Positions 30,007 to 63,099 of a stretch of 64,000 nt of DNA are shown here, one piece after another. The notes below the pieces were generated by a model. The model had not been told where the DNA came from and made no database searches. It saw nothing but the letters and a program-made list of their open reading frames with translations. The position numbers and the translations under genes are program-made. This stretch comes from a virus, in the UHGV virus genome UHGV-0057547. One strand, 5' to 3'. The number at the start of each line of letters is the position of its first letter. The stretch's first letter is position 1.

Positions 30007-31417
30007 AATTATGCGTCCTATGTAAAGAAATTTGCATAGAAAATCTCCTTAATTGCAGGTAATTCCTAAAGCCTTACACCAAAACGGAAGGTGAAAACCT
30101 AAACGGCAACGGTACGAAAGTAGAAAAAACGTAAGGATGGATATAAGGTTAAATCCTAAGTATCCAAACATATTTATATATGTTAAAATGGATGTTCATG
30201 CAGGTAAGATTCTAAATTAAATTATTTTAAATACTTAACTTTTAATAAGATAAATTGTATAATATAAATAAAGAGAGGTGATAAAATGGCAAAAAAGAAA
30301 TCTCATGAGGAGTTTGTTAATGAATTAAATATAAAAAATCCTAATATAAAAGTATTGAATAAATATGTAAATGTGTCTACGAAAATAATGGTTAAATGTA
30401 TAATTTGTGGAAATGAATGGATGGCAATACCTGGTAGTTTATTAAATGGAACTGGGTGTCCAAAATGTGCAAATAAAAATAAATCAAATAAACAAAGAAA
30501 GACAAAAGAACAATTTATAGAAGAGATGAAAATTATTAATCCTAATGTTAAAATAATCGGTGATTATATTAATAATCATACGAAGATAAAATGTGAATGT
30601 TTAATATGTGGGAATATATATTTTATGATACCTAAAAATTTAAGGAAAGGGCAAAATTGTCCTGAATGTGCTATGAAACAAAGAGTATCTAAAAAATCTA
30701 AAATTCATGAACAATTTATAATTGAATTAAATGATATAAATAAAAATATTAAAGTATCAAATAAATATATAAATGCAAAAACAATCATGGAATGTTCTTG
30801 TGATATTTGTGGTCATAAATGGAAATCTAATGCTGATAATTTATTAAGAGGTCATGGGTGTCCAAAGTGTGCAATAGAAAATAGTAGAGGTGAAAATAAC
30901 CATAATTGGAATCCTAATCTTACACAAGAAGATAGAGAAAATAAAAGAAATTATATGGAATATAAAGAATGGAGAAAAAATTGTTATGAACGAGATGATT
31001 ATACTTGTCAAGTTACAGGGAAAAGAGGAGTAGAATTATGCGTACATCATTTATATTCTTATAATAAATATTATTGTTTAAGAACTGCATTAGATAATGG
31101 TATAACAGTATCTAAAGAAATACATGAATTGTTTCATAAAATATATGGACGAGGAGATAACACATTAGAACAATGGGAAGAATTTATTAAAAGTTTAGAA
31201 TAATTTAATATGAATCAAAGCTCAACGACTATTCCGTAAGGAAGTAAAACCACAAGCTATTGGTGGAAGAAAAGGGAGATACCTTAACAGATAATGCTGA
31301 AGGTGAAGAAATAGTCTACTCTCATATGAAAGTATGAGCAGTTTTGTATATATACAAAACGGATTAAGTGTAGCGAACTTAATTGAATATAAAGGATAAG
31401 AATCCCTCATCCCTTTG
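30007..31417 (+). mobile_element. Group I intron carrying an HNH-type homing-endonuclease ORF
   Basis: P1 and P2 hairpin ctatg..catag; conserved 5' core; P7 elements caacGACTA ... gaaATAGTCTa; 3' end inferred from frame (ccctttg|g). Confidence 0.6.
30286..31203 (+). CDS. Intron-encoded homing endonuclease: three zinc-ribbon repeat modules plus C-terminal HNH domain
   Basis: Repeats CxxC...GxGCPKC; C-terminal CQVTG...CVHHL..YN...DNG motif; own promoter and RBS. Confidence 0.6.
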   Translation: MAKKKSHEEFVNELNIKNPNIKVLNKYVNVSTKIMVKCIICGNEWMAIPGSLLNGTGCPKCANKNKSNKQRKTKEQFIEEMKIINPNVKIIGDYINNHTKIKCECLICGNIYFMIPKNLRKGQNCPECAMKQRVSKKSKIHEQFIIELNDINKNIKVSNKYINAKTIMECSCDICGHKWKSNADNLLRGHGCPKCAIENSRGENNHNWNPNLTQEDRENKRNYMEYKEWRKNCYERDDYTCQVTGKRGVELCVHHLYSYNKYYCLRTALDNGITVSKEIHELFHKIYGRGDNTLEQWEEFIKSLE

Positions 31418-31696
31418 GTCATATCAAGAAATATGTATGAATTATTTACTCCTTAGAAAAGATAGAGGAAATGTTCAACTTCAAAAAAGTATTCAAGAAA
31501 TTAATAGTAAATTACAAGCTGACTGTAAAATGAAATTATCACAAATAGATAATGATGATGATGACAATGCTTGTTTTGGGAAATTTATAGATAGAATAGA
31601 ATTATATGAACCATGTAATAAAAAGTTACCATTTTTTGAAGATATAGATGGAATAAGACAATACTTAAAACGATGGAAACAAAAAGCCACGACTGT
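31418..31696 (+). CDS. Terminase small subunit-like protein, exon 2
   Basis: Only open frame; phase matches exon 1 (2-nt carry-over); P1 ctgt|at with IGS atatgcag. Confidence 0.4.
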
Positions 31697-32088
31697 ATAG
31701 AAATATGCAGTGGACACAGATTTAATTGCAGGTAATTCCTAAAGCCTTACACCAAAACGGAAGGTGAAAACCTAAACGGCAACGGTACGAAAGTAGAAAA
31801 AACGTAAGGATGGATATAAGGTTAAATCCTAAGTATCCAAACATATTTATATATGTTAAAATGGGTGTTCATGCAGGTAAGATTCTAAGTGATAATTTTA
31901 TATCATATGAATAAACTTCAACGACTAGAATGCAAATTCGTAGGGTGTAAGCGATTGACACTCGAAAAGGTCTGCCCTTAACAGGTAATGCTGAAGGTGA
32001 AGAAATAGTCTAGTCACTCTAGGAAACTAGGTGCTTAGAATTAACTAAGGTTTATAGTGTAGCGACTATAAGTAAATATTAACGTTTG
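31697..32088 (+). mobile_element. ORF-less group I intron (3' boundary 32088 or up to 32110)
   Basis: 5' half nearly identical to 30031-30285; contains caacGACTAg and ATAGTCTAg P7 strands; ends aacgtttg. Confidence 0.55.
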
Positions 32089-32110
32089 TTTTGCCTTTTG
32101 CGAAGCAGTG

Positions 32111-32401: not shown

Positions 32402-32747
32402 TAAATATTTAGCTTATTTTATTAGGTAACTAATAATCTAAACCCTTTGAATTGCTGGAAAGGACTTAGAGCCTATTGAACTACAACGTGACTAGAAATG
32501 GTGAGCGTGAATGTTTAAAAATCAATAGGATTGTTTAATCAGCAGGTAAGATTCTAAATTGCTATAAACAATATGAATAAACTTCAACGACTAGAGTTTA
32601 AACTCGTAGGCTACAAGTTATTGGTAGTCGAAGCGGAGGGCATCCTTTCATAGGATGAAGATATAGTCTGTTCTTATATGAAAATATAAGTAGTTCTTTA
32701 TTTAATAAAGAACAGTATGTATGTAGCGAATACATATGAACATTTAG
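32402..32747 (+). mobile_element. ORF-less group I intron
   Basis: Conserved 5' core (aattgctggaaagg...cagcaggtaagattctaa) directly joined to 3' core (aataaacttcaacgactag...gatatagtctg). Confidence 0.6.
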
Positions 32748-32863: not shown

Positions 32864-34032
32864 AAATAGATATGCTCCATTATATAGAAATATATAATTA
32901 AAAATCAATCAAAATCGGTAAAAGTCTAAGTTTAATATTTACATTTTTTAGGAATATAAGTATAATATATAAAAGGGGTGAGATTAAATGGGTAAAATAA
33001 TAAATAAATATGATAGAATAGGTGAAACATCGATATCAAAAGAAGGATATGAAATGAAAATAATTGAATATATTGATGCAAGACATATTCTAATAGAATT
33101 TCAAGATGAACATAAAACTAGGTTAATGTGTCAATATGGTGACTTTAAATGTAGAAAAAATATTAAAAATCCATATCATCCAGCAGTATATAAAATAGGG
33201 TATTTGGGACAAGGTAAATATAATAAAAAAAATTATCAACGTATATATTGGACATGGAAAGATATGCTGAGAAGATGTTATAGTGAAGAGTACTTAAAAA
33301 GAGAACCTTCTTATAGAGGCTGTTGTGTTTGTGAAGAATGGCATAATTTCCAAAACTTTGCTAAATGGTATGAAGAAAATTATTATGAAGTTGAGAATCA
33401 AAGAATGCATTTAGATAAAGATATACTTGTAAAAATGAATAAAACATATAGTCCACAAACTTGTATATTTGTTCCACAAATAATTAATAGTTTATTTATA
33501 ACATCTAAGGCTATAAGAGGAGAATATCCTATTGGCGTTTCAAGAAAACAGAATAAATTAATTGTTCAAATTAATAAATATGATGAAAATATGAAAAAAT
33601 CAAAATATACAATGGTAAAAAAATTTGAAATAGAAGAAGTAAATGAAGCATTTTTTTGCTATAAAACAGAAAAAGAAAATGAAATAAAGAAAAGAGCCGA
33701 TTTATTTAAAGAATATATTCCAAAAAAATTGTATAATGCATTATATAAATATAAAATTGAAATAACAGATTAAATATGATAATACCGAGGTAAGATAGAA
33801 AATTAAAAAGTTCTATCCACTGTAGAGCATAGAGATTGAACCTTTGTAAGAACTATTATACAATAGTTCTTTTTTAATTGCAAAGAATAAAATATCTCCA
33901 AGAGTGATTGACACCTTACTATTAAGTTAAAGGTGAAAATATATGCCATACTGAGCTAGAATTGACTAGCTGATGAAAATGAGGGAAACCTCCAGAGGTT
34001 AAGATAAAAAACTTAACGTTAATAATGAATAG
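32864..34032 (+). mobile_element. Type-2 (T-family) intron carrying an HNH endonuclease ORF; 3' part is element T1
   Basis: P1 ggggt/gctcc, P2 attatatagaaatatataat, caaaatcggt block, internal promoter, ORF, then about 270-nt T1 element. Confidence 0.5.
32988..33773 (+). CDS. Intron-encoded HNH-family homing endonuclease (Bacillus-phage type: WTW-DML-RRC...CCVCEEW..F..F..W...LDKDIL motif)
   Basis: Diagnostic conserved motif set read directly; own promoter and RBS aaaagggg. Confidence 0.55.
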   Translation: MGKIINKYDRIGETSISKEGYEMKIIEYIDARHILIEFQDEHKTRLMCQYGDFKCRKNIKNPYHPAVYKIGYLGQGKYNKKNYQRIYWTWKDMLRRCYSEEYLKREPSYRGCCVCEEWHNFQNFAKWYEENYYEVENQRMHLDKDILVKMNKTYSPQTCIFVPQIINSLFITSKAIRGEYPIGVSRKQNKLIVQINKYDENMKKSKYTMVKKFEIEEVNEAFFCYKTEKENEIKKRADLFKEYIPKKLYNALYKYKIEITD

Positions 34033-34135
34033 TTATCGAAATCGTATATGACAGCAATATTCCTTTGTTGTAAAGCAATATTATATCCAAATAGTTTAAT
34101 TGTAGTTTCTTGTTCAACTAAGGAGCAAGCGAGAT
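34033..34135 (+). CDS. terL: Terminase large subunit, exon e34 (P-loop ..LSKSYMTAIF.. and LIVVSCSTKEQAR Q-motif)
   Basis: Joins exon X in phase to give ICARGLSKSY Walker A-like loop; ends gcgagat with IGS gtctc. Confidence 0.5.
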
Positions 34136-35567
34136 ATAATGTCTCCTATATTAAGTGATTAGTATAGCAAATCTTTTGAATTGCTGGAAACTCCTAAAGC
34201 TCAATTCACTACAACGTAAGGTTAAATCCTAAGCGTGAATGTTACGAAAGTAGAAAAAAGTAATTGAGATGGTATAAGGTTAAATCCTAAGTACTTTTAC
34301 AATGGACAATCAGCAGGTAAGATTTATATTTATTTTACTTTACTTTTAATAATTAATTTCGTATAATTTAAGTAAATGGAGGTGAAATATTATGGCATGG
34401 AAATATGAAGATGTGAAAAAGTATGTAGAATCATTTGGTTATAAATTAATATCAAAAGAATATAAGACTTGTAAAGATAAACTTCATTTAATGTGTCCTA
34501 ATGAAAGTGATTTTATTGTAAGATTTGATAATTTTAAAAATGCTAAACAACGTTGTAAATGTGATAAATGTAAAGGTAGAAATCCAAGAATGTTTTCTTA
34601 TGAATATGTAAAAGAATACATAGAAAAAGAAGGGTATAAATTAATATCAAAAGAATACAATGGAAATAAAAAACGTATAGAATTAGAATGCCCAAATGGT
34701 CATAAATGGAAAGTAAGATTTACTGATTTTAAAAATGGAAGAAGATGTTATTATTGTTCTTGTTGTTATAAACCTACCATTGGAGAAATTAGAATGAGAT
34801 TATCAAAATATGGTTATACATTGTTATCTGAAGAATATAAAAATGCAAATGAAAAAATTAATGTAAAATGCCCTAATGGTCATAAATATCCTACTACATA
34901 TCATAATTTTGATAATGGTAAAAGATGTCCATACTGTTATAATAAATATAGTAAAGGTGAGTATAGACTTATAAATTTATTTAATAATTATAAAATAAAC
35001 TATAAACATCAATATATTTTTAATGATTGTAGAGATATAAATCCTTTGCCATTTGATTTTTATTTATATGATTATAATTGTTGTGTAGAATTTGATGGAG
35101 AAGGGCATTATGAACCTAGAAATTGGAATGGAGCTTCAGATGAAAAAGCAATAGAAACATATAAAATAACGGTATTACATGATAAAATTAAAACACAATA
35201 TTGTAAGGATAATAGCGTAAAACTCATAAGAATACCATATTGGGAATTTAATAATATAGAAAACATTATTTGTCAAGAATTAAATATTAAAAGAAAACAA
35301 AGAAGAAAAGGTAATAAATTAAAATAAATATGAATAAACTTCAACGACTAAGTATCCTAGTAGTCTAGGTAGAGGAAGAGGTCTTATATTAATAAGATTG
35401 TGATATAGTCTGCTCTCATGCGAAAGCATGAGCAGTTCATAAAAGAACGGATAGAATAGTAACGATATTCTATTGAACATAAGGAATCTTATAAAGGAGA
35501 AGATAGCTAAAGAGCTATGTTCTCAATCGAAAATGTTAAATAGAGAAATTGCTAAAGTAGTCACTGG
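34136..35567 (+). mobile_element. Group I intron carrying a Zn-ribbon/DUF559 homing-endonuclease ORF (3' end approximate)
   Basis: P1 gagat/gtctc, P2 ctatattaagtgattagtatag; conserved 5' and 3' cores flanking the ORF. Confidence 0.55.
34392..35327 (+). CDS. Homing endonuclease, Zn-ribbon repeat modules plus DUF559/Vsr-like PD-(D/E)xK nuclease domain
   Basis: Three modules YEYVKEYIE..GYKLISKEY...CPNGH...F..FKNG.RC; C-terminal PLPFDFYL...VEFDGEGHYE...KLIRIPYWEF. Confidence 0.6.
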   Translation: MAWKYEDVKKYVESFGYKLISKEYKTCKDKLHLMCPNESDFIVRFDNFKNAKQRCKCDKCKGRNPRMFSYEYVKEYIEKEGYKLISKEYNGNKKRIELECPNGHKWKVRFTDFKNGRRCYYCSCCYKPTIGEIRMRLSKYGYTLLSEEYKNANEKINVKCPNGHKYPTTYHNFDNGKRCPYCYNKYSKGEYRLINLFNNYKINYKHQYIFNDCRDINPLPFDFYLYDYNCCVEFDGEGHYEPRNWNGASDEKAIETYKITVLHDKIKTQYCKDNSVKLIRIPYWEFNNIENIICQELNIKRKQRRKGNKLK

Positions 35568-35631
35568 TACTAATGAAACAGTGGTTATCTTTAACAATGG
35601 TAGTACCATTCAAGTTTAATGCTTTGCACAT
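35568..35631 (+). CDS. terL: Terminase large subunit, exon e35 (boundaries approximate)
   Basis: Only open frame; phases fit e34 (1-nt) and e38 (2-nt carry-over); P1 gcacat/gtgtgt. Confidence 0.35.
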
Positions 35632-35877
35632 TGAGTAATTAGTGTGTATAACCGATTGAATTGCTTGTAAATCCTAAAGCTAACTAAACTACAACGTAAC
35701 CTGAAAAGGTAAGCGTGAATGTAGCGAAAGCAGAAAAAATTAGTTAGATGGTATATGGTTAAATCCTAAGTACTTTTACAATGGAAGTCTAGCAGGGAAG
35801 ATTCTAAAATTATTTAAATTAAATATTTGACTTTTAATAATATAAGTTGTATAATATAAATAAATGGAGGTGATAAT

Positions 35878-36834
35878 ATGTCAAAAATAATGTGGGATGA
35901 AAAATCAATAAAAAAATTTGTTGAGCAATATAATCATGAATTCATTGAAATTATAGAATTTAATAACATAAGAAGTTTAATAAAAATTAAATGTAAAAAT
36001 AAAAAACACAAACCATTTGAAATAAAATTTACATCATTTAGACAAACTATGCTAAAAAATGGAAATTCTTGCAAAGAATGTAAAAAAGAAGCAAAAATGT
36101 TAAAAAGAGAAGATGTAGAAAACCTAATTAGAGAAAGAGGACTTATTTGGCTAGAGGGAGAGTATATAAGTAATGATACAAAAAATTTATTAGTATGGTG
36201 TGGAAATATTAATCATGAACCATTTTTAACAAGTCAAAATTATATATTATGTAATAATGGTAATAGTTGCAAAAAATGTGGTATAGAAAATAATGCAAAT
36301 AACAAAAGACTTTCATATGAGTATGTATATAACTATATAAAAAATGAGGGTGATGAACTATTATCAAAAACTTATGTAAACAATTCACAAAATTTAAAAA
36401 TTAAATGTGGTAAATGTAATAATGTATTTGAAACTTCATTTGGGCACTATCAAAATAAAGATAGAAGATGCTTATGTAAAGCTCAATCAAGAGGAGAATA
36501 TGAAATTAAACGAATATTTGATAAATATAATTTAATTGAAAATGTAGATTATGAATGTCAAAAAAAATACGAAGGATTAATTGGGGTTGGTGGTAGAAAA
36601 CTTTCTTATGATTTCTATATCAATAATACATTAATAGAATATCAAGGTTCTTATCATGATGGAACTGCTAGAAAACAAACAGATGAAGGATATGAGATAC
36701 AAAAGGAACATGATAAAAGAAAAAAAGATTATGCTAAAAATAATAACATTAATTTATTAGAGATATGGTATTGGGACTTTAATAATATAGAAAATATACT
36801 TATAGAAAATTTTAATTTAAATAATAATGAATAA
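35878..36834 (+). CDS. Homing endonuclease, Zn-ribbon repeats plus DUF559/Vsr-like domain
   Basis: Same modular architecture as 34392..35327; C-terminal LSYDFYI...IEYQGSYHD...NLLEIWYWDF. Confidence 0.55.
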   Translation: MSKIMWDEKSIKKFVEQYNHEFIEIIEFNNIRSLIKIKCKNKKHKPFEIKFTSFRQTMLKNGNSCKECKKEAKMLKREDVENLIRERGLIWLEGEYISNDTKNLLVWCGNINHEPFLTSQNYILCNNGNSCKKCGIENNANNKRLSYEYVYNYIKNEGDELLSKTYVNNSQNLKIKCGKCNNVFETSFGHYQNKDRRCLCKAQSRGEYEIKRIFDKYNLIENVDYECQKKYEGLIGVGGRKLSYDFYINNTLIEYQGSYHDGTARKQTDEGYEIQKEHDKRKKDYAKNNNINLLEIWYWDFNNIENILIENFNLNNNE

Positions 36835-37086
36835 CCTTCAACGAACAAGTATCCTAGTAGTCTAGGTAGTGGTCGGTATCCTTAGTAAAGGATAATGATA
36901 TGTTCTGCTCTCATGTGAAAGCATGAGCAGTTTATGTGATTAATTAAAATTCACAAATAAACGGTATAAGGTATAACGAACCTTATATGAACACAAATGC
37001 AGTAAACGCTTCTCAAAATACAAGAGGTAAATTTTTCATATCACTTTACATTTTTTAATAATTAGAGTATAATATAAACAAAGGGG

Positions 37087-37956
37087 GTGATTGAATTGAA
37101 ATGGACTAAGGATATGGAGCAATACTTAATTGATAATTATAATAAATTAACTATTGAAGAATTAGCTAAAAATATAGGAGTAACAAAATCCTCAATAATA
37201 AATAAAGCTTTTTCATTAAAAATAACAAATAATGTTAAAAATAAAGATAGAGGAAATATTAATATATTTAAAAATATAAATTCAGAAGAAAGTGCTTATT
37301 GGTTAGGATTTATATATGCTGATGGTTATATAGTTAAAAGTGAAAATGATAAAAAACATCATAATTATGAATTAGGTATAGAACTTCAAGAATCTGATAT
37401 TTCTCATTTGAAAAAATTTAATAAAATATTTAATGATTATTATAAAATAAAAACAAGAATCAGAAAAATGGATTCATTGGATATTTTAAATGGAAATGAA
37501 GTTTCAAATAGATTAAATAAAACTTGTTTGATAAGAATATATAATAAAGAAATAGTTAATGATTTAATAAAAAATAATATTGTTCAAAATAAAACTAATT
37601 CAGATATATTTCCTATTATAGATGATGACAATATGTTTTTACATTTTTTAAGAGGATATATTGATGGCGATGGTTCTTATGTTGTTGATAGTAAAAATAG
37701 ATACATAATATCAATTCAAGGTAATAATAAAAAATGTTTTGAATTTATATCTAATAAGTTATTAACAAGTTTTAATATTAATTCATATATAACAAAAGAT
37801 AAAACAGGTTGGAAATTAAATATAAGAAAAAAAGATGATGTTTTAAAATTAATAGATTTAATGTTTAATAATTCAAATATTTATTTAGATAGAAAATATG
37901 AGAAAGTAAAAGATATGAAAAAAGCCGTCTTTAATAGAAATATTAAAGATAATTAG
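37087..37956 (+). CDS. LAGLIDADG homing endonuclease (double-motif, single-chain)
   Basis: Two LAGLIDADG motifs: LGFIYADGYI and LRGYIDGDGS; GTG start after RBS aaaggggg. Confidence 0.7.
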   Translation: MIELKWTKDMEQYLIDNYNKLTIEELAKNIGVTKSSIINKAFSLKITNNVKNKDRGNINIFKNINSEESAYWLGFIYADGYIVKSENDKKHHNYELGIELQESDISHLKKFNKIFNDYYKIKTRIRKMDSLDILNGNEVSNRLNKTCLIRIYNKEIVNDLIKNNIVQNKTNSDIFPIIDDDNMFLHFLRGYIDGDGSYVVDSKNRYIISIQGNNKKCFEFISNKLLTSFNINSYITKDKTGWKLNIRKKDDVLKLIDLMFNNSNIYLDRKYEKVKDMKKAVFNRNIKDN

Positions 37957-38280
37957 AGAACAAAATCGGTCATAGTAAATCGTAAGATTAAGCTGATAAG
38001 AGAGCCTAAGTCCTTATAGGATATGGTAATACCGAGGTAAGATAGAAAATTAAAAAGTTCTATCCACCGTAACGCATAGAGATTGAACCTTTGTGAGAAC
38101 TATTATACAATAGTTCTTTTTTAATTACAAAGAATAAAATATCTCCAAGAGTGTTCTCCACCTTATCATTAAGTTGAAGGTGAAAATATATGCTGGACTG
38201 GGTATGAATTGACATACCATAATGCGAGGAAACTCCTAGAACTAGAGGATAAAAAGCCTTTAGGATAACAAAACGTTAAG

Positions 38281-38325
38281 ATGCCATGTACTCGTGGTTG
38301 ATGAGTATAGAATGATACAAGGAGT
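38281..38325 (+). CDS. terL: Terminase large subunit, exon e38 (Walker B ..CHVLVVDEYRMIQG)
   Basis: Open frame; ends ggagt paired to IGS gctcc of the next intron. Confidence 0.45.
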
Positions 38326-39865
38326 AATATATAGCTCCCTATGTTTATAAAAAGCATAGAAAAACTCTTTAATTGCTGGAAACTCCTAAAGTCCTATAAA
38401 CTACAACATGATTAGAAATAATGAGTGTGAATGTTACGAAAGTAGAAAAAATTATAGGAATGGTATATGGTTAAATCCTAAGTACTTTTACAATGGACAA
38501 TCAGCAGGTAAGATTTATATTTATTTTACTTTACTTTTAATAATTAATTTTGTATAATTTAAGTAAATGGAGGTGATAAAATGTTAAAATATAATAATGA
38601 TTATATTATCAATTATATAAATGAAAATTATAAAAATTTTAAAATAGTAAGTATAGATGGTAATGGAAAGGAAGCTATTGTAACTTTATGGTGTGGCGTT
38701 AGTGGTCATAAACATATACAATGCACATTTGCTAATCTTTTATATAAAGATAGTTTTCACTGTAGAGAATGTAAAAAAGATGATAAGATAAACGAAATAA
38801 AAAAGATTATAGGTGATGAATATCAAATAATCTCAATAGATTATATTAGTAATGATTGGATAAGAAGTAGAGCTATATTATGGTGTGGAATAGAAGGACA
38901 TGAATATATTGATGTATCTTTTAAATCAATAATAAATGGAAATATTATTGGATGTAAATTATGTAGAAAAAATAAACATATATTAAAAATAAAAGAAAAT
39001 GTAGAAAAAGTTAATAAAAAATTAATAGAAGTAAAAAAATATAATGAAAAAGATTATCACAAATCAAGAATAATAGTATCTTGTGGTAATGAAAAACATG
39101 AATTAATAGAGACTTCTTTAAATAAAATTATAAATTCAAACGTTAAATGTAAGGATTGCATAAAAGAAGATAATATTAATAAAATGATGCTATATATAAA
39201 TTCTACTCAATACAAATTTAATAAAATTGTAAAATATTGTGAATCAGATTATATAAAAAGTATGGTAGAAATAACATGTCCAAAAGATGAAACCCACATA
39301 TTTACAATGAGATTTTCTAATTTTAAATATGAAGGTAAAAGATGTCCTCATTGTGGTATGACTTATGGTGAACAAGAAGTTGCAAATGTATTAAAAAGAT
39401 ACAATATAAAATATAAATTTCAATATAAATATAAAGATTGTAGATTTATAAATCCTCTTCCTTTTGATTTTTATTTACCTGATTATAACATATTAATTGA
39501 ATACGATGGTAAACAACATTATGAATCAGTAGATTTATTTGGTGGAGAAAAAGGTTTTAAATATACAAAACAAAATGATGGAATAAAAAATCAATACTGT
39601 AAGAATAATAATATAAAATTAATAAGGATACCATATTGGTGTTTTAATAATATAGAAGAAATATTAATTAAAGAATTAAAAGTAAACATAAATAAATATG
39701 AATAAACTTCAACGACTAGAACGTAAGTTCGTAGGGTGTAAGTGATTGACACTCGAAATGGGAGTTACCTAATAATAGGTAGTGATATAGTCTAGTCTCA
39801 TATGAAAGTATGAGCAGTTCATAAGAGAACGTACATAACGTAGCGAATTATGTAGAATATAACGG
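38326..39865 (+). mobile_element. Group I intron carrying a Zn-ribbon/DUF559 homing-endonuclease ORF
   Basis: P1 ggagt/gctcc, P2 ctatgtttataaaaagcatag, conserved cores, P7 GACTA/TAGTC; ends ...gaatataacgg. Confidence 0.6.
38581..39705 (+). CDS. Homing endonuclease, Zn-ribbon repeats plus DUF559/Vsr-like domain
   Basis: Four Cys-pair modules; C-terminal PLPFDFYLPDYNILIEYDGKQHYE...NNIKLIRIPYWCF. Confidence 0.6.
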   Translation: MLKYNNDYIINYINENYKNFKIVSIDGNGKEAIVTLWCGVSGHKHIQCTFANLLYKDSFHCRECKKDDKINEIKKIIGDEYQIISIDYISNDWIRSRAILWCGIEGHEYIDVSFKSIINGNIIGCKLCRKNKHILKIKENVEKVNKKLIEVKKYNEKDYHKSRIIVSCGNEKHELIETSLNKIINSNVKCKDCIKEDNINKMMLYINSTQYKFNKIVKYCESDYIKSMVEITCPKDETHIFTMRFSNFKYEGKRCPHCGMTYGEQEVANVLKRYNIKYKFQYKYKDCRFINPLPFDFYLPDYNILIEYDGKQHYESVDLFGGEKGFKYTKQNDGIKNQYCKNNNIKLIRIPYWCFNNIEEILIKELKVNINKYE

Positions 39866-40021
39866 TTTTGATACATTAAACTCAGTATTAAGACCATTCT
39901 TAAACTGTGTTAGAATACCAAAATTTAAGAATAGAGATGATGGAAAATATGCAGATTATCCATCAGAGGAAAACCAAGAGATTTATTTGAGCAGTGCATT
40001 AAAACTAGTGCAAACTATGGT
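39866..40021 (+). CDS. terL: Terminase large subunit, exon e39
   Basis: 52-codon open frame in AT-rich DNA; phases consistent with both flanking exons. Confidence 0.45.
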
Positions 40022-40341
40022 GAAATGTAGATAGCTATAGTTGAGTATCAATCAAAATCGGTCATATGTATAGTGATATACATGGTAAGAAAGACTAAGT
40101 GTTAATTTAACATAAGTTGATACCGAGGTAAGTTAAGGAACTAAAAAGCCTTATCCACTGTAACGCATAGAGATTGAACCTTTGCAAGAACTATTATATA
40201 ATAGTTCTTTTTTAATTGCAAAGAATAAAATATCTCCAAGAGTGATTGACACACGCTACATTTATTGTGTGAAAATATATGCTGAACTTATAGGAAACTA
40301 TAAGAACTAAAGGATAAAAAGCCTTTAGGATAACAATTTGG
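40022..40341 (+). mobile_element. Standalone ORF-less T-family intron (element T3); 5' boundary 40022 or 40033
   Basis: P1 atggt/gctat, caaaatcggtcatatg block, about 300 nt, shares covarying hairpins with T1, T2 and T4; both boundary choices give a consistent terL frame. Confidence 0.45.
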
Positions 40342-41465: not shown

Positions 41466-42364
41466 GTGAGTGAAGAAAAAAAGCAAAAGAAGTTGTTTGC
41501 AGAAACTTCTGTAGCTAACAATGCACAAAAATATACAACTAAACCAGTTAAATATAGTGCTAGTGAAATAATGGGATTCTTAGAAGACCCACAAGCAAAT
41601 GCACTTAACTTACAAAAAGCTAGTATTTGGTTGTATTATAATAGTGGTATATACAATAGAATAATTAATAACTATGCTGGTATGAATATCTATGATTTAT
41701 ATTTATATCCAACTACAATTAGTAAATTTTCTAAATCAAAAAGAAAAATAACACCTGATAAATTATATAAAGATTATTTAGATATAAGTAATTTATTAGA
41801 AAGAATTAGTTGGAAATCAAATTATCGTAATATAGGAGTTAACCTTATGATACAAGGAGAAGTTTTCTTATATGATGTATCTGATAATCAAGGTACTATA
41901 TTAAAAGAAATACCAACTGAAATATGTAAAATATGTAAGGTTATAAATGATAATTTATATAAATATGCAATCAATGTAAATAAATTAGGTACAGCAGAAT
42001 ATTATTCAATGATGCCTTTAGGATTACAAAGATTATATGACCAACATAAAGCAGGTTCACTATCACCTGAACAATATTTAGGAACTGCTGGTTCAGGTTA
42101 TGTAATAGTAGATGACCCTGAAGCAATATGTTTAAGTTTAAATAATATGACTTCAACAAAATCTGTTCCAACTTTATCTTATTTATTTCCTTCATTATTA
42201 AGATTAATGGAAGAAGAAGAAAATGAAGTTGTGGAAAATAAAGCTAATAATTTAAAAATGATACATATGCAATATGATGTAGATGAAGAAGGCGAATCAA
42301 GAATAGCTGAAGCTGACCTTATAAAAATGCATAATTCAGCTAAAGCCAATTTACCAGTAGGAGT
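41466..42364 (+). CDS. Portal protein, exon 1
   Basis: Gene order after terL, size and acidic C-terminus of the spliced product; exon ends ggagt (2-nt carry-over). Confidence 0.5.
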
Positions 42365-43679
42365 AACATATAGCTCCCTATGTTTATAAAAAGCATAGAA
42401 AACTCTTTTAATTGCTGGAAACTCCTAAAGCTCAATTCACTAAAACATAATCTGAAAATGATAAGTGTGAATGTTACGAAAGTAGAAAAAAGTAATTGAG
42501 ATTACCCAAGGTTAAATCCTAAAGGTGAATGAATGGACAATCAGCAACCAAGATTTTAAGTTTAATTCATTGATTTTTAATATAATATAAAATAAAGTGA
42601 GGTAATTAATATAGCATTAAAATGGACTGAAGAAAAAATAATAGAATTTATAAATAATGAAAATTATATAGTAAAAAAAATAATAAGTGGAATTGGAAAA
42701 GAAACGAGATTATTGGTATGGTGTGGTAATCCTAATCATAAACCATATAAAGTTATTTTTAATAATTTTAAAAGAGGAACAAGATGTCAGTCTTGTTATG
42801 ATGAAAGAAGAAGAAAATGGACTGATGAAATTATTAAAGAATATTTAGAAAGTTATAAATATAAACTAATAGAAATTATAAAATCTAAAGGCGTTCAATC
42901 TATTGTAAAAATAAAATGTCCTAAATGTGGATATGTATATACTATTAAATTTGATACATTTAGAAATGGTCGTAGATGTATGCAATGTTTTCTTAAAGAA
43001 AATAGAATTAGTGAAGAAGAAATAAAAAAAATAATAAAAGATAATAAAGATATATTAATAGATATTGAGTATCATAGTTTAGATAGTATTTTATATTTAT
43101 ATTGTAATAAATGTAAAAAAAATTATCCTATTACATTTTATTGGTATTTAAAAGGCGGAAGATGCAAGTTTTGCAAAGAATCAAGAGGGGCTAGAAAAAT
43201 AAGAGAATATTTAGAAAATAAACAATATAATTTTAAACAAGAATTTAGAATTAAAGAATGTAGATATAAATTTCCATTACCATTTGATTTTATGGTTACT
43301 ATAAATGATAATATTATTTTAATAGAATTCGATGGGTTAGAACATTATGAACCTATTGAGTATTTTGGAGGTATAGTTAAATTTAATGAAAGAAAAAGAA
43401 ATGATAATATTAAAAATCAATATTGTAAAGATAATAATATAAAACTTATAAGGATTCCATATTGGGAATATGACAACATAGATGAAATATTAAATAAAGA
43501 ATTAAACTTAAAATAAGGTTCAACGACTAGAGCGTAAGCTCGTAGAGTGTAAGTGATTGACACTCGAAATGGAGAGTATCTAATAATAGGTAGTGATATA
43601 GTCTAGTCTCATATGAAAGTATGAGCAGTTCATAAGAGAACGGATTAGGAGTAGCGACCCTAATTGAATACAACGTTTG
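42365..43679 (+). mobile_element. Group I intron carrying a Zn-ribbon/DUF559 homing-endonuclease ORF
   Basis: P1 ggagt/gctcc; cores as in the other type-1 introns; 3' end aacgtttg fixed by reading frame. Confidence 0.6.
42713..43516 (+). CDS. Homing endonuclease, Zn-ribbon repeats plus DUF559/Vsr-like domain; conserved N-terminal region extends to an ATA at 42611 behind a good RBS (possible start-codon mutation)
   Basis: TTG at 42713 is the first canonical start; upstream in-frame IALKWTEEKIIEF matches paralog N-termini. Confidence 0.5.
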   Translation: MVWCGNPNHKPYKVIFNNFKRGTRCQSCYDERRRKWTDEIIKEYLESYKYKLIEIIKSKGVQSIVKIKCPKCGYVYTIKFDTFRNGRRCMQCFLKENRISEEEIKKIIKDNKDILIDIEYHSLDSILYLYCNKCKKNYPITFYWYLKGGRCKFCKESRGARKIREYLENKQYNFKQEFRIKECRYKFPLPFDFMVTINDNIILIEFDGLEHYEPIEYFGGIVKFNERKRNDNIKNQYCKDNNIKLIRIPYWEYDNIDEILNKELNLK

Positions 43680-44523: not shown

Positions 44524-45098
44524 TTGAAAGGAGGTGTAATTATGAATAACAAACTTAGATTACCTATTAAAAGATTTGAAAGTACAGATGAAGTTTTAGT
44601 TAATACAAACTTTAAAAAAGTTAAAATATACATTATGCATACAGGTGAAAACCTTAATGGTTCTGTATTTTCAGTAGATAGTATAAATGATTCAATAGAT
44701 ACACTTGCAAACATTCCAATATTGGCATTTGTTGAAAAAACTGATGGACAAGATAACAAAGATTTTGCAGGACATGAAACTGATTTAGATATATTTACAG
44801 ATGAAGATGGAACAATTAAAGTAAGAGAATACTATAAAGAAGTACCTATTGGAGTAATACCTGAAAGTAATGATTATTTCTTTGAAGAAAAAGATGGAGA
44901 AACATACTTAGGGTGTTATGGTTACATATGGAAATGTTATTCTAATGATGCTTATGACATATTAGAAGAAGACCAAGAAAAAGAAGTCTCTATGGAAATT
45001 TATATAAATAATTGTTCTTATGATAGAAAACAAAGATGTAATATTAATAAATTTGAATTTCTTGGAGTTACAGTGTTAGGTGCTAAATACCCAGGAGT
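44524..45098 (+). CDS. Prohead protease/scaffold-like protein, exon 1
   Basis: Position between portal and capsid genes; exon ends ggagt paired to gctcc. Confidence 0.4.
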
Positions 45099-45491
45099 GA
45101 TTAGCTCCCTATATGGAGTGATTCATATAGCAAACTCTCTGAATTGCTTGTAAATCCTAAAGCTAACTAAACTACAACGTGATTGGAAACAATGGGCGTG
45201 AATGTGGCGAAAGCAGAAAAAATTAGTTAGATGGTATATGGTTAAATCCTAAGTACTTTTACAATGGAAGTCTAGCAGGTAAGATTCTAAATTACTATAA
45301 GTGATATGAATAAACTTCAACGACTATTGAAATAATTGTAAGAACCTTATTACAATTAAAGTAAAGTACATTCAAGTGAATGGAAGTAGAGAGTGTCTTA
45401 TTTAATTAATGTAAGATAATGATATAGTCTCAACGTTTAGCGAAAGCTAAAGAAGTTCATAAGAGAACTGCATAAGAATAACGAACTTATG
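45099..45491 (+). mobile_element. ORF-less group I intron (3' boundary within 45483-45509)
   Basis: P1 ggagt/gctcc, P2 ctatatggagtgattcatatag, complete 5' and 3' cores without ORF. Confidence 0.55.
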
Positions 45492-53107: not shown

Positions 53108-53253
53108 ATGGCTACACTATTTGCTATAAAAGATGCAATAGATTTAAAAATAACTAAAAAAGGTGAATCAGCAGTTTTCACTACAATAGACTACTTAAAT
53201 GAATGTCAAATACAAATGGACTCAGAACAAGTATATGCTCTTAAAAAAGGAGT
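53108..53253 (+). CDS. Major tail protein-like, exon 1
   Basis: Exon ends ggagt paired to gctcc; spliced product ends in an Ig-like-looking C-terminal exon. Confidence 0.4.
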
Positions 53254-54610
53254 AATTTGCTCCCTATGTAAGTAAATTGCATAGCAAATCCTTTTAATTG
53301 CTGGAAACTCCTAAAGCCTTGCAAACCACAACGCAACTTGAAAAAGTAAACGTGATGGTGACGAAAGTAGAAAAAATTGTAAGGATTACCCAAGGTTAAA
53401 TCCTAAAGGTGAATGAATGGACAATCAGCAGGTAAGATTTATATTTATTTTACTTTACTTTTAATAATTAATTTCGTATAATTTAAGTAAATGGAGGTGG
53501 TAGATATAAAATGGACAGAAGATAGAATTAAAGAATATGTTGAAAATCAAGGATATACTTATATAAAAAGAATTGAAGGAAAAGCAAGTATGTCGATTAT
53601 AGAAGTTTGGTGTGGAAATCTTAATCATAAATCTTATAGGGTTATGTTTAAAAATTTTAAAGGTAATAAAGCAAAAAAACCAACAAGATGCCCATATTGT
53701 AGTAAAAATAAAAAATTAACCATTGAAGAAGTAAGAGTATTTGTTGAAAAATATGATTTTAGTTTATTATCTGTAGAATATATTAATAATAGAACTCCAT
53801 TAACACTACAATGTAAAAATGGACATATATTTTCAATAAGATTAGATAATTTTAAACAAAGTTTAAAATGTCCAATGTGTTATAGACATTATGGTGCTTA
53901 CACCGAAGATGAAGTTAAGCAATACCTTGAAAGTTTTGGTTATGAATTACTGAATAAATATATAGATATACATAAAAAAATAATAATTAAATGCCCTAAA
54001 GGTCATATTTATAAAACTTCATTTAATAGTTTTAAAAATAATGGAACTAGATGTTCTATTTGTAGAAAATCAAAAGGTGAAGAAAAAATATCTAAAACAT
54101 TAAAAGAATTAAAAATAAAATTCATAAGTCAATTTGTATTCGATGATTGTCAATATAAAACATATCTTCCATTTGATTTTTATTTACCTGAATATAATAT
54201 ATTAATTGAATACGATGGGATTCAACACTATGAACCTGTAGACTTTGGTGGTAAAGGAAATGAATGGGCAAATAAACAACTCGAATTAACAAAAATAAAA
54301 GACAATATAAAAACACAATATTGTGAAAATAATAATATAAAACTTATAAGAATATCTTATTGGGAATTTGATAGCATAGAAAATATATTAAGTAAAGAGT
54401 TAAAAGTAAGAAAATAAATATGAATAAACTTCAACGACTATTCCGTAAGGAAGTAAAGCCACAAGCTATTGGTGGAAGAAATGGAGGATACCTAGAAATA
54501 GGTAGTGATATAGTCTGTTCTCATGTGAAAGCATGAGCAGTTTATATTGAATGAGTATAAACGATGTATGTGTAGCGAACATATGTGAACACAAAGATAA
54601 CTATATATCA
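53254..54610 (+). mobile_element. Group I intron carrying a Zn-ribbon/DUF559 homing-endonuclease ORF (3' end approximate)
   Basis: P1 ggagt/gctcc, P2 ctatgtaagtaaattgcatag; cores and P7 present. Confidence 0.55.
53491..54417 (+). CDS. Homing endonuclease, Zn-ribbon repeats plus DUF559/Vsr-like domain
   Basis: YLPFDFYLPEYNILIEYDGIQHYE...NNIKLIRISYWEF. Confidence 0.6.
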   Translation: MEVVDIKWTEDRIKEYVENQGYTYIKRIEGKASMSIIEVWCGNLNHKSYRVMFKNFKGNKAKKPTRCPYCSKNKKLTIEEVRVFVEKYDFSLLSVEYINNRTPLTLQCKNGHIFSIRLDNFKQSLKCPMCYRHYGAYTEDEVKQYLESFGYELLNKYIDIHKKIIIKCPKGHIYKTSFNSFKNNGTRCSICRKSKGEEKISKTLKELKIKFISQFVFDDCQYKTYLPFDFYLPEYNILIEYDGIQHYEPVDFGGKGNEWANKQLELTKIKDNIKTQYCENNNIKLIRISYWEFDSIENILSKELKVRK

Positions 54611-54639: not shown

Positions 54640-55026
54640 AATGAACTGTAACTAGTACAGCGTATGTAAAGAAATTTACATAGGACACAACCTTAAAACC
54701 AGTAACTCCTAAAGCTCAACAACTACAACAAAGGATAGAATCAGAAACCTTTGTGAATGTGAGGAAACTCTGAAACAATAGTTGAGATGATATATGGCGA
54801 GAGCCTAAGTATTGTAACAATGGATGTTTGGTCGCCAAACTTAGAAATAAGAAGGTCAAACGACTATGATTTGAAAGAATCATAAAGCCTCAAGCGAATG
54901 GAGGAAGAAATGGGTTGCCCCTAACAGATAATGCTGAGGGTGAAGAAATAGTCTAGTCACTCTAGGAAACTAGGTGCTTAGAATTGACTAAGGTTTATAA
55001 GTTGCGATTATAAATAAATATTAACG
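54640..55026 (+). mobile_element. ORF-less group I intron directly downstream of the previous intron, separated by a putative micro-exon within ~54611-54650
   Basis: P2-like hairpin atgtaaagaaatttacat, 5' core aactcctaaagctcaacaactacaac...tagttgagatgatatatgg (ctcaaca/tagttgag covariation), P7 caaacgactatg...gaaatagtctag. Confidence 0.5.
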
Positions 55027-56468: not shown

Positions 56469-56502
56469 TCAATCTATTAATAAGAAAGAGTGGTGGTAAT
56501 TT

Positions 56503-59500
56503 GTGAGTGAATTTGATATAAGAATTGGTACGCAACTAGATACTAGTAAAGCGTTACAACAATTGATGGAATTCGTCAAAAAATATGACAATAAAGAAAA
56601 GATAAATATAGACATAGGCCAAACAAAAGGTGCTAATAACATAAAAAACACAACCAAAGCTATGAAAGAAATGCAAAAGATAGCTAAGGCGTTAGGAAGC
56701 ACAAAGATTGACATAGGTGGCAATATAGGTAAGGCTACTGGTGAAGCTACTAAATCATTAGAAAATAGTATAGACAAACAAGCCAAATCTATTGCCAAAA
56801 TAACTAGTAATGCACAAAGAGATTTAACTAAAGATGCTCAAAAAGGTATTGGGAATAGTCTTAAAGGTATCAATGCAGAAATGAAAGATACCCAAAGAAA
56901 TGTCGAGAGAATGATTAGTACTCTTGAACGAGCTAAGAAAGTTGAATTAATAGACCAAAAAGGTTTAGATGAAGGGTTAGCTAAATTAAAAGATATGAAA
57001 GCTAATCTTAATATAGGTAATATTGACAATGTAGAAAAAAAATTAGGGGAAGTAGCAAGTGACTATAAGAAATTAATGACAGATGCAACTAAGGAAGCAT
57101 TTAATAATGTTGAAGTATCAGGGTTATTAGAAGACTTAAAAGTTGTCAGAGAAGCTATGTCAGCTAAAAACATGGATTTAAGTGGTGTTGATACTTTAAT
57201 TTCTAAAGCTAAACAACTTACTTCTTTAAGTGTTGACCAAATGTTACAACAGTACAAAGAATTAAGACAAGTATTTAGTAAAGAATTAAAGATACCATTA
57301 GGTTTAAGTGGCATAATGAACGCTGAAACTGCAATTAAAAATGTTCTAGATTATAAAAACAAACTAACTGCTAAAGTTTCAGTTGAAACAAATTCAGAAC
57401 AAATAGATATTTTAAAAGATAAAATAATAAGATGTGATGAAGTTGTTGAACAACTTAGAGGAGATTTAAACTTAGTAGGTAGAAGTACAGCATTAAATTT
57501 AATGGAACAAGCTAATGAAAGAGAATTAGATACATTAAGCGCTAAATTAAAAAAATGTAAAAATGATTATGCTAGTTTAGAAAAAGAAAGAGAAAGATTA
57601 AATAAAGATAGTAGATACCTTGGAACAGAAGATTTAAACAACATAGAGAAACAATCATTAGCCATAAAGAAAAACCTTGATAGTTTAAATGTTGGAAATT
57701 TAAATACTGATAAAATAAATAAAGTTACTGGTGACATAGATAATTTAAGAAAAACAATAGAATCAACTGGTAATTCAGCTAAAAAATTAGATATAGAAGC
57801 AACAGTTAAAGTAGATATGAAAAATGCTCAAGACCAATTAAATGGTATGTATTCTGCTTTAATAAAATCTAATAAATCTACCGTAATGGTTAAAAAATAT
57901 AAAGATGAATTAGAAGGATTATTTGATTTATCTAAGACTAACCCAGGTGTAGCACTAGACAAAATAAGTGGTTTTATAGAAAAAGTAAATAAAGAAGCCA
58001 AGAATAAAGGTTTAGGTAAAATAACTGGTGGTTTAGACCAATACAAACAATACTTAAAAGATTATGAATCATTAGTTAAAAAAGCTAGTGGTACTACTGA
58101 TATTGGTTTTGCAAAAGCTTACAAATCAGAAGTTACACAAATAGAAAAAGCATTAGACCAATTAGAAAGTGGATTTAACCAAACTCAAAAATCTATGGCT
58201 AAATCTTTGAGATTAGAGTCAATTAATAAGAATACTCAAGAATTTATTAATCAAGTTGAGAAATCTATTAAGAAAACTCAAGAATATAAAAAAGAATTAC
58301 AAACTCTTAATAATGATATAAATTTTGATGGTCTTACTTCTAAATTAGGTCAAAAAGTCAAAGAAGAATTTGACGGAATGATTAATAAAACTAATCAATT
58401 AGAAAAAAGACTTGGCAATATGTTATCATCAGGTAACATAAATACTACTGAACTATCTAAGTTAAAATCAGAACTTGAAAGTACTTTTTCCGGACTTTCT
58501 AAACTTAAGGATACTAGTATAAAAATTAAAACTGATGAAACTGTATCAGGACTTAATAAAATCAAAAAAGATTTAGAAACATTAGGACAAGATACTAGTC
58601 AAATAGAAAGAGTTATTAACGCATTAAAAGAACTTAAAGCCAATTTCAATGGTGGTACAGCAGGTTATAAAGAATTAGCCAATGGAATAAAATCTATTGG
58701 AAAAGATAATAACTTAGAAAAACTAAATAGTTCTTTAGAAAAATCAGTTAAGAAATTTAATAACTTAGCTAAAGCTGTCGGAGAACTAAAGGTTAAAAAT
58801 ATAGGTAATATAGACCAAGGTGCTTTTCAATCTTTAGATAGTCAAGTTGCACGAATACAATCTCATATAGAAGGTTTAAATAAAAATGATATATCTTTAA
58901 TAGATGTTAAAAAAGTTGAAGCAGAAGTAAATGAATTAAGCAACTGTGTAGAAAAAATGAGTAGTGAATTAACTCAATATAGTAAATATTTGGAAGAATA
59001 TAAAAGATTATCTAGTCAAGCAGGTAAAACAAATGATGTTAATTTAGCTACAAAATATCAACAAGAAGCAGAAGGTATAAAAGGTGTATTAACTCAATTA
59101 GAAAGTGAGTTTACACAAGCTCAAAAATCTATTGCTCAAGGATTAAAAACTGATGCTTTCTCTAATGCTAATGAAAAAATGTCTTCTGAAATTAATAAAT
59201 CAATTAAAACAGTTGATAATCTTAAAGAAAAACTTAATACATTAGATAAAGATGTACATTTTGAAAATATGACATCTGAATTAGGTAAAGAATTAAATAG
59301 TCAATTTGATACTTTAGCTAATAAAGGTGAAGAATTAAAAGATAAATTAAATAAAATATTAGCATCTGATAACGTAGATATTTCTGCTTTAAGTAAAATT
59401 AAAAAAGAAATAAGCGAATTTGCAAGTGAAGTTAATAATTTAAAAAATTCTGCAATGGATAATGTTATTAGAGAATCTTTTGATAACATTAAAATACCTA

Positions 59501-61630: not shown

Positions 61631-62695
61631 TAATTGATTTGCCGTTTATATTAGAAATAATATAAATTATTAGAGGGCAAAATCGGTGAAGACTAAATAT
61701 TTTAATTTATTTACTTTTAATAAAAAATATGGTATAATAATATAAAATAGGAGGGGATATAATGAGAAGATTGAGTTATGAATATGTAAAAGAGTATATA
61801 GAAAATTTTGGTTATAAATTATTATCAAAAGAATATAAAAACAATAAAACTGAATTAGAAATACAATGTAATGATTGTGGGAATATATTCCATATGAGAT
61901 TTAACAATTTTAAAGATGGTAAACATAGATGTGAATGTAAGAGCAAACCATTAGTTTTGACATATGAATATGTTAAAAATTATATTGAATCATGTGGATA
62001 TAAATTATTATCAAAAGAATATAAAAATAATGCAACCTATTTATTGGTTTGGTGTGGAAATCCTAATCACAAACCTTATAAAGTTAAATTTAATAATTTT
62101 AAAGATTGTAATAGTAGATGTCCTGAATGTAATACAACTTCAAAAGGTGAAGAAAAAATAAAAGAAATTCTAATAAAATATAATATAAAATTTAATCAAC
62201 AATATTTATTTAATGATTGTAGAAATACAAGACCACTTCCATTTGATTTTTATTTACCACAGTATAATATTACAATAGAATATGATGGGAGACAACATTA
62301 TAAATTAGATTGTTTTAATATGAATTTATTAGATTTAATGAATTTGAAATATAATGATAATAAAAAAACACAATATTGCAATAATAATAATATAAAACTT
62401 ATAAGAATACCATATTGGGATTTTAATAATATAGAAAAAATACTTAAAAAAGAATTAAAAGTAAATTGAATAAAGTACAAGTTAATACCGAGATAACTTA
62501 TTAGATTACGAAAAGGCTAATAAGTATTGTAGAGCATAGAGGATGAATAAATATAACTCCTCCAAGAGTGTCCTCCATCCTAACGTAAAGACGAGGATGA
62601 AAATATATGCCATACTGAATTGGAATAGACCAATTGATGAAAATGAGGGAAACCTCCAGAGCATAAGATAAAAAGCTTATGGATAATAACAATAG
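61631..62695 (+). mobile_element. Type-2 (T-family) intron carrying a Zn-ribbon/DUF559 endonuclease ORF; 3' part is element T4
   Basis: P2 tttatattagaaataatataaa, caaaatcggtgaagactaa block, internal promoter, ORF, then T4 with covarying hairpins. Confidence 0.5.
61762..62469 (+). CDS. Homing endonuclease, Zn-ribbon repeats plus DUF559/Vsr-like domain (shortest paralog)
   Basis: PLPFDFYLPQYNITIEYDGRQHY...NNIKLIRIPYWDF. Confidence 0.55.
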   Translation: MRRLSYEYVKEYIENFGYKLLSKEYKNNKTELEIQCNDCGNIFHMRFNNFKDGKHRCECKSKPLVLTYEYVKNYIESCGYKLLSKEYKNNATYLLVWCGNPNHKPYKVKFNNFKDCNSRCPECNTTSKGEEKIKEILIKYNIKFNQQYLFNDCRNTRPLPFDFYLPQYNITIEYDGRQHYKLDCFNMNLLDLMNLKYNDNKKTQYCNNNNIKLIRIPYWDFNNIEKILKKELKVN

Positions 62696-62708
62696 AAATT
62701 ACGCTGGT
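62696..62708 (+). CDS. Tape measure protein 13-nt micro-exon (aaattacgctggt) between two introns
   Basis: Flanked upstream by T4 3' end and downstream by P1 loop/IGS gccag complementary to its ctggt end; frame depends on exact splice sites. Confidence 0.35.
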
Positions 62709-63099
62709 TAGAATTAGCCAGGCTATATGGAGACATATAGTACAAATCTCTTTTGAATTGCTGGAAAGGACTTAGAGCCTATTGAACTACAACGTAGATG
62801 GAAACATCAAACGTGAATGTTAAAAAATCAATAGGATTGTTCAATCAGCAGGTAAAATTCTAAGTGATAATTTATCATATGAATAAACTTCAACGACTAT
62901 CCCTTGGATTTGCTAATTTAGTAAATCAATAGGAGTACGGCTCAAGCGATTGGAGTGGGTGAGAATCCCTTAAATGGAAGTGGAAGAGGACTTATAAAAG
63001 TTCAAGATATAGTCTACTCTCGTAGGAAATCTACGAGCAGTCCTTTTTTTGGACGGTATGTATATAGCGAATACATATGAATATTAAGGAATAACTTCG
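62709..63099 (+). mobile_element. ORF-less group I intron in the tape-measure gene (3' end 63089-63099)
   Basis: P1 ctggt/gccag, P2 ctatatggagacatatag, full 5' and 3' cores, P7 caacgactatc...agatatagtctac. Confidence 0.55.

Follow-up and report, generated by a model that had tools for sequence, protein, structure and literature searches.

Phage T4 carries three group I introns in its whole genome, in td, nrdB, and nrdD (sunY), which belong to subgroup IA2, hold open reading frames (ORFs) in their loops, spread by homing, and have helices defined by covariation. The textbook rule for such introns is cleavage 3' of a wobble U and ligation after a terminal G. Three introns are also found in Twort orf142. 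In the Jug jumbo gut phages, which carry 18.5 introns on average per 360 to 402 kb and have terL in two to three pieces, group I introns and homing endonucleases break up many essential genes, terL among them, and intron content varies among close relatives (PMC12880540). Here, we analyzed a 64,000-nucleotide (nt) stretch of the virus genome UHGV-0057547 (the window), in which an initial annotation had proposed that base changes between intron copies preserve an RNA structure. In a range of about 34 kb, we found at least 16 putative group I introns, about one per 2 kb, comprising 12 copies of one family (family 1, A to L) and four of another (family X, X1 to X4). Of these, seven (C, X1, D, E, X2, F, and X3) interrupt terL and leave it in eight exons.

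The 12 family 1 copies were located by their core motifs (GAATTGC, GCAGGTAAGATT, TTCAACGACTA, and GATATAGTCT) and by self-BLAST. Family 1 is also present in 278 annotated phage records, among them that of the phage 812 recA intron; most are from Staphylococcus, Enterococcus, Lactococcus, Bacillus, and Clostridium phages, and one has an annotated group I intron. Direct similarity to these Firmicute phage introns is 70 to 88% over 100 to 190 nt. IA2-type introns have been described as typical of such phages (PMC11878797). With the introns of Firmicute myoviruses (Twort orf142; phage K/812, e.g., the recA812 intron, EF136586; and SPO1/Bastille DNA polymerase), family 1 shares core motifs (GAAUUGC..., ...CAACGACUA..., and ...GAUAUAGUC...), the P7.1 and P7.2 hairpins, an elongated P5, and peripheral loops that hold endonuclease ORFs. 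Those introns likewise lie in structural and DNA metabolism genes, and several per gene are possible, but the density in the window is far higher: a span of about 34 kb holds 16 to 17 introns, 7 of them in terL. Jug and crAss-like phages resemble the window phage in being intron rich and having fragmented essential genes. However, Jug introns are about 206 nt long, whereas those of the window are mostly 1.3 to 1.5 kb with ORFs and leave terL in 8 pieces, and the host lineage of the window phage is a different one, low-GC and Firmicute-like. Only the Rfam model reveals any similarity to the T4 introns. Both fold and covariation are those of textbook group IA introns, and the covariation proposed by the initial annotation is correct but unsurprising; what is new is the intron density, the eight terL exons, the large variant sets of two families, and an apparently shifted register of the 5' junction.

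The initial annotation rested on a helix of the 5' core and on P1, and every helix and P1 string that it quoted is present where it had been placed. In copy D, the helix pairs CTCAATT (34200-34206) with AATTGAG (34262-34268). Copies A and B have CCTTAC with GTAAGG (30071-76 and 30121-26 in A), E and H have CTAACTA with TAGTTAG (35680-86 and 35741-47 in E), and C and L have CCTATTGA with TCAATAGG (32472-79 and 32522-29 in C). Further variants in F (TCCTATAA/TTATAGGA), J (CCTTGCAA/TTGTAAGG, including one G.U pair), and K (CTCAAC/GTTGAG) bring the number in the window to seven, every one of them self-complementary. Because of its position between flanking core motifs, with the 5' arm between ...CCUAAAG and ACUACAACG... 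and the 3' arm ahead of AUGG or AUUA, we assign this helix to a P5a-like stem within the P5 extension. An alignment-free comparison shows that each 7-nt 5' arm has, within its own copy and always at the same offset, a partner with 6 to 7 of 7 Watson-Crick pairs, and when the seven helix types of the window were permuted, the observed total was reached in 2 of 5040 arrangements. These results bear out the claim that each copy retains its own complementarity. Elsewhere in the P5 extension of D and I, the P5b hairpin UAAGGUUAAAUCCUAAG exactly duplicates the inner P5d hairpin (34217-34233 and 34275-34291 in D), and the other copies have a GAAA-loop version of P5b.

Relatives from outside the window extend this pattern. 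A scan of IMG/VR for the 5' core pattern yielded at least 118 further loci, and we aligned 74 distinct copies (8 from the window and 66 from IMG/VR) by MAFFT without structural input. On this alignment RNAalifold, which is also blind to known structure, predicted P4, P5, the quoted helix, P5b, P5c, and P5d; the alignment and folding check suggested with the initial annotation therefore recovered the helix, and its outcome was not an absence of significant pairs. Double-sided changes occur at 23 of the 32 pairs of the 5' domain and at all eight pairs of the quoted helix, where a single pair takes up to six standard types. Standard pairs make up 98.1% of the paired positions, vs 78.0% after shuffling (reached in 0 of 500 shuffles) and 23 to 37% when the 3' partners are slid by one to three columns, and the covariation score is 0.577, vs 0.185 shuffled and 0.05 to 0.08 slid. 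An alignment of ten window copies alone gave 90.5% pairing, vs 74.5% shuffled (0 of 500) and 28 to 42% slid, with compensatory changes at 20 of 33 pairs, a result that held although MAFFT had placed the 3' arm of A and B one column off. The long-range helix P3, which joins strands as much as 1.3 kb apart, was recovered by permutation at a P value of about 0.003, which is conservative because two arms (J and F) were misanchored. Moreover, G.U pairs outnumber A.C mismatches by 119 to 4 in the large alignment and by 27 to 4 in the window alignment. Such an excess is unexpected for DNA palindromes and points to selection on the + strand RNA, in agreement with the proposal of the initial annotation that RNA structure, and not coding, is under selection.

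Could this covariation be a phylogenetic artefact, in which a few helix variants were inherited among recent duplicates without any selection on pairing? Some window copies do have identical helix variants (D/G/I, E/H, A/B, and C/L), and the shuffle control is blind to relatedness. However, the slid control keeps relatedness, and its pairing and score nevertheless fall far below the observed values. Individual pairs also take three to six standard types among 74 distinct sequences from many contigs, and seven helix types are found within the window alone. We therefore consider an artefact of this kind very improbable and retain selection on pairing as the explanation.

The 3' half of the elements tells the same story. 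In an alignment of 51 sequences of the 3' domain, P7, P7.2, P8, and P9 were recovered, and 12 of the 16 pairs are compensatory. The copies have a catalytic core in common that is conserved. Together, P4, P5, P7, P8, and P9 of the core were found blindly by RNAalifold and P3 by permutation, and compensatory substitutions between copies are seen in P3, P4, P5a to P5d, P7.1, P7.2, P8, P9, P9.1, and P9.2. The P7.1 hairpin directly follows GACUA (GAGUUUAAACUC, UUCCGUAAGGAA, GAACGUAAGUUC, and others), and a second hairpin, P7.2, lies ahead of P3'; P7.2 pairs covary, and P7.1 is absent from D and E. Since two hairpins sit between P7 and P3', the subgroup is IA. The group IA placement made in the initial annotation gains further support from the Rfam group I model RF00028, which has a cutoff of 50 bits and is exceeded by C (92.8 bits) and L (72.7 bits), with H (46.9 bits; E value, 6e-11) and B (45.7 bits; E value, 2e-8) just below and the 3' halves of K and A at about 25 bits. 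Copies with an ORF are split by it, yet they can be aligned to C and L. Thus, the family 1 elements are very probably phage-type IA group I self-splicing introns, IA2-like, in which P7.1 and P7.2 accompany a long extension of P5 and the P6a loop usually holds an endonuclease ORF. The genes in which they sit are late and packaging genes.

If these elements are introns, their removal should leave intact genes. A brute-force listing of all U...G splice pairs was too permissive, and the junctions were instead set by reading frames and by intron-less alleles, which were found for C, X1, X2, X3, E, F, G, J, and K; a scan for an H-less allele gave nothing. When introns are removed at these junctions, all on the + strand, every interrupted gene is open. 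Each allele-defined insert (C, E, G, J, K, X2, X3, F, and X1) ends in G, as expected for omega G, where F uses the first G of ACGG and X1 allows a synonymous G-to-U difference in the exon. The eight terL exons join into a 599-amino-acid terminase large subunit (phrog_2; E value, 1.5e-22), and phrog_15503 matches the spliced protein as a single stretch over exons 1 to 7.

Among the family 1 members, intron A (30024 to 31395; ORF, 30286 to 31203) has canonical termini and a P1 of CUAUGU with GCAUAG; it was delimited by motifs, alignments, and the restored reading frame, and Pfam matches CapR, a treble-clef zinc finger, and a weak HNH domain. Intron B (31698 to 32084), which has no ORF and a 5' end uncertain by about 3 nt, rests on its Rfam score and on an open gene 1 after splicing. 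In terL, intron C (32402 to 32747) has no ORF and is canonical (...AUAGGU^ ... UUUAG^, the caret marking the junction), and the intron-less allele of the related contig L025 fixes the insert at 346 nt. Intron D (34135 to 35484; ORF, 34392 to 35327) holds the quoted helix and has a P1 of GAGAU with GUCUC (34131-35 and 34141-45). Intron E (35615 to 36999; ORF, 35878 to 36834) is defined by the E-less allele of L045, ATTCAAG^CAGTAAA, as U35615 to G36999. Intron F (38325 to 39864; ORF, 38581 to 39705), with a P1 of GGAGU with GCUCC, is defined by the F-less allele of L025, CAAGGAG^GTTTCG, and by reading frames.

Downstream, intron G (42364 to 43675; ORF, 42713 to 43516) interrupts the portal gene, which is whole again once G is removed; the G-less allele of L040, GGAG^TTTGTG, gives an insert of 1312 nt, and comparison with L006, L023, and L025 gives the same. 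Intron H (45098 to 45502), supported by Rfam and by the reading frame, has no ORF in the window, and its L025 version has one. Intron I lies at 47737 to 49070 (ORF, 47986 to 48912; P1 GGGGU with GCCCC, GGGGU at 47733-47737). Intron J lies at 53253 to 54596 (ORF, 53491 to 54417), and four J-less contigs read AAAAAGGAG^ATAACTATATA. Intron K (54649 to 55026), without an ORF, has K-less alleles in L111, L238, and L239 and an RF00028 score of 24.8 bits for its 3' half. Removal of J and K yields a 183-amino-acid protein. In the tape-measure gene, the frame passes through X4, a 13-nt micro-exon (62696 to 62708), and intron L (62709 to 63089), and it is continuous only with the micro-exon; L has no ORF and is canonical (U62708 ... 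G63089). In the mechanism that we propose, the transcribed RNA would fold, bind guanosine, excise itself, and join the exons, the fold would be kept by selection, and ligation would restore the terminase, portal, tail, and tape-measure reading frames.

Several observations weigh against so simple a picture. Rfam gives no single hit for most of the ORF-containing copies, because the ORF splits the core, and family X has no RF00028 match even at E values up to 10 (421-nt slice). G has a degenerate 5' strand of P6, and P4 and P6 of K are divergent. Splicing itself is inferred from the DNA sequence. Finally, were the textbook rule to apply to E, G, J, K, and an extra intron carried by L238, each mRNA would gain a U and fall out of frame.

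This last point concerns P1 and the 5' junction. The initial annotation had P1 covarying with the exon, and this stands for GAGAT/GTCTC at 34131-35/34141-45 and for GGGGT/GCCCC with GGGGT at 47733-37; the pair GGAGT/GCTCC, said to occur in most copies, is found in 4 of 12 (F, G, H, and J). A permutation test of P1 by itself is weak (P value, about 0.03), because helices of 4 to 5 bp with G.U pairs are easy to find in AT-rich sequence. P1 varies among copies because every guide sequence is complementary to the site at which its own intron is inserted. The assumption that the final U of GGAGU is exonic did not hold up, as intron-less alleles place the guide-paired U inside the insert in at least five cases: CAAG^CAG (E), GGAG^UUUG (G), GGAG^AUAAC (J, four contigs), CUG^UCAAG (K), and GGAA^CAUU at the empty site of the extra L238 intron. 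In all of these, the insert runs from the U paired with the guide G through the terminal G, and the last base of the exon is G or A. The window junctions concerned are 35614/35615 (E), 42363/42364 (G), 53252/53253 (J), and 54648/54649 (K). The exon ahead of J has no U in its last 10 nt, and reading frames indicate the same shifted register for D, H, and I.

The usual arrangement, a U.G wobble with an exon-terminal U, is seen in A, C, L, X1 to X4, and possibly F. Outside the window, canonical family 1 members include three presence/absence pairs in other contigs and the recA intron of phage 812, which restores GSGKST (GGU^UACC...ACUG^AAG), whereas one window clade starts its insert at the guide-paired U. 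The phiIPLA-RODI record has no join annotation, and phage 812 recA served as the canonical comparator.

Three options can account for the register. The most likely is that the clade D to K, in which P2 mostly starts with CCUAUG, has its 5' junction shifted upstream by one nucleotide relative to the textbook site, so that the wobble U is intronic, a reading that we put forward tentatively and at somewhat less than even odds. The exon would then end in G, or may end in A in two cases (D and the extra L238 intron), and the intron may bring its own wobble U into RGGAG^N sites that have none. Another option is that these copies splice in the textbook way and that the extra U is corrected by +1 frameshifting, aided by an upstream AGGAG or AGGGG. 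F, G, H, I, and J do have RGGAG or RGGGG directly before the junction, and the prfB frameshift site has a similar arrangement. However, D, E, and K have no such motif, G spliced in this way meets a stop four codons into the rest of the portal gene, essential genes would depend on inefficient frameshifting at no fewer than seven sites, and intron-less alleles encode the same protein without a shift; we regard frameshifting as highly unlikely. The remaining option, a terminal nucleotide other than G (C, U, or A depending on the copy), is implausible.

A brief literature search found no prior description of a shifted register. If true, it would be a natural exception to the rule of cleavage 3' of the U.G wobble and, if true at the RNA level, would bear on 5' splice-site choice by group I introns and on their spread to new sites. 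The exons end in AAGGAG ahead of F (38319-38324), UAGGAG ahead of G (42358-42363), CAGGAG ahead of H (45092-45097), AAGGGG ahead of I (47731-47736), AAGGAG ahead of J (53247-53252), and CAGGAA ahead of the extra L238 intron. The similarity of these motifs suggests spread to new sites guided by a guide sequence of 4 to 5 nt. The exon motifs of this one clade occur in different genes, and the motif is also Shine-Dalgarno-like. As a further observation on 5' ends, the P2 hairpin of K, GUAUGUAAAGAAAUUUACAUAG (54661-54682), is nearly identical to the P1 hairpin of A, CUAUGUAAAGAAAUUUGCAUAG (30018-30039), and K may descend from an A-like intron to which a new P1 was added upstream.

Most of the introns carry a putative endonuclease ORF, which in family 1 is 0.8 to 1.1 kb long and lies in the P6a loop. 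Pfam searches of the intron ORFs returned CapR, treble-clef zinc fingers, weak HNH, and PD-(D/E)XK-like domains, and LAGLIDADG in X2. Presence of introns and ORFs differs among relatives. L025 is without C, X1, X3, and F and carries an additional X-type intron elsewhere in terL; L045 is without X1, E, and X2, with D and F lacking ORFs and B and C having them. G is missing from L040 and K from L111, and of the four contigs without J, three have another intron a few codons downstream. The same intron thus occurs in versions with and without an ORF, and the overall pattern fits that expected of homing introns and their endonuclease genes, whose products would propagate the elements by homing. The six best + strand sigma-70-like sites (30235-30263, 32938-32966, 34339-34367, 35827-35855, 37045-37073, and 38530-38558; 10 to 11 of 12 positions, 17-nt spacers) end 20 to 25 nt upstream of intron ORF starts, and these starts have a GGAGG-type ribosome-binding site. 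The endonuclease genes seem to be served by promoters of their own within the introns, although total counts in the promoter and terminator scan of the window equal the shuffle expectation and are no evidence alone. A further insertion, of about 610 nt and with no family 1 or family X core motif, lies at the start of the tape-measure gene in L111 (5479-6082) and is missing at 56497-56506 of the window.

Least probable of the rival accounts, and in our view next to excluded, is that the elements are DNA-level structures, such as endonuclease cassettes flanked by palindromes or by hairpins for recombination or termination, whose complementarity is selected on DNA: most copies do have endonuclease ORFs and promoter-like sites, and some P1 and P9 hairpins have terminator-like scores, but the excess of G.U over A.C is strand specific, P3, P4, and P7 pair over distances of up to 1.3 kb, a curated group I model is hit, the full structure is kept in copies without an ORF, and reading frames are restored on excision.

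The group I intron reading extends to family X. Its core (...AAUACCGAG-hairpin-GUAACGCAUAGA...UCCAAGAGU...GAAAAURUAUGC...GAUAACA) differs in motifs from that of family 1 but has an architecture of the same kind, with P1 including the U.G pair, P3, P4, P6, P7, P8, P9, and P9.1, and the elements end in G; we identified no second hairpin resembling P7.2 in the stretch from P7 to P3'. X1 (32864 to 34032; ORF, 32988 to 33773; P1 GGGGU with GCUCC) is an insert of 1169 nt that is missing from L025 and L045. X2 (37029 to 38275) has a P3 of GAGAAC with GUUCUC and a LAGLIDADG ORF near its 5' end (37087 to 37956; LAGLIDADG_3, E value 1.7e-14), and it is canonical and missing from L045. X3 (40000 to 40340; P1 UGCAU with GUGCA), without an ORF, is also canonical, is missing from L025, and has a folding z-score of -2.86 and no Rfam match. 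X4, in the tape-measure gene (61632 to 62695; ORF, 61762 to 62469), has a P3 of GAGGGC with GUCCUC. The absence of X1, X2, and X3 from relatives is exact. At least 118 IMG/VR loci fit the 3'-core signature of family X, most of them clear members and some chance matches in coding sequence. In a MAFFT alignment of 41 members, with a structure of our own, 95.6% of positions pair, vs 71.3% shuffled (0 of 500) and 30 to 44% slid, and 29 of 38 pairs are compensatory. Architecture and covariation thus fit a group I intron despite the absence of a curated-model match. Rfam matches of family X to the L10 leader and U3 are at chance level and were rejected.

The single Rfam model misses family X and most ORF-bearing copies, and the natural variants assembled here (more than 70 of family 1 and more than 40 of family X) could improve covariance models. 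An intron load as extreme as eight terL exons and a 13-nt micro-exon also means that gene calling in viromes sees strings of fragments.

As for the genome, the window has a GC content of about 25%, long ORFs in genetic code table 11, and PHROG matches to exonuclease, portal, and tape-measure proteins. The spliced portal protein aligns without interruption to that of Clostridium phage phiCD211 at about 31% identity (E value, 4e-55), and its identity to the portal of any cultured phage is only about 31%. On the basis of AT richness, table 11 ORFs, PHROG matches, and this likeness to phiCD211, we assign the window to a low-GC phage, as yet uncultured, that has a distant relationship to large Clostridia phages. 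IMG/VR contigs of 173 to 198 kb (sample 3300045988) hold stretches nearly identical to it. The long table 11 ORFs and phage structural genes rule out a mitochondrial origin, and core motifs and stops in all frames rule out group II introns and inteins. In the tape-measure gene, a further intervening element, probably the 17th, begins near 63474 (about 63474 to 64000) and runs off the end of the window: the reading frame is lost after ...GCAGGU, next come a promoter-like site, a ribosome-binding site, and an ATG at 63570, and the element resembles the LAGLIDADG ORF of X2. Elsewhere in the window, a - strand ORF at 12201-14543 (780 amino acids) has internal direct repeats of about 70 to 76% identity at 12355-14145 and a local GC content of 34%, above that of the rest of the window.

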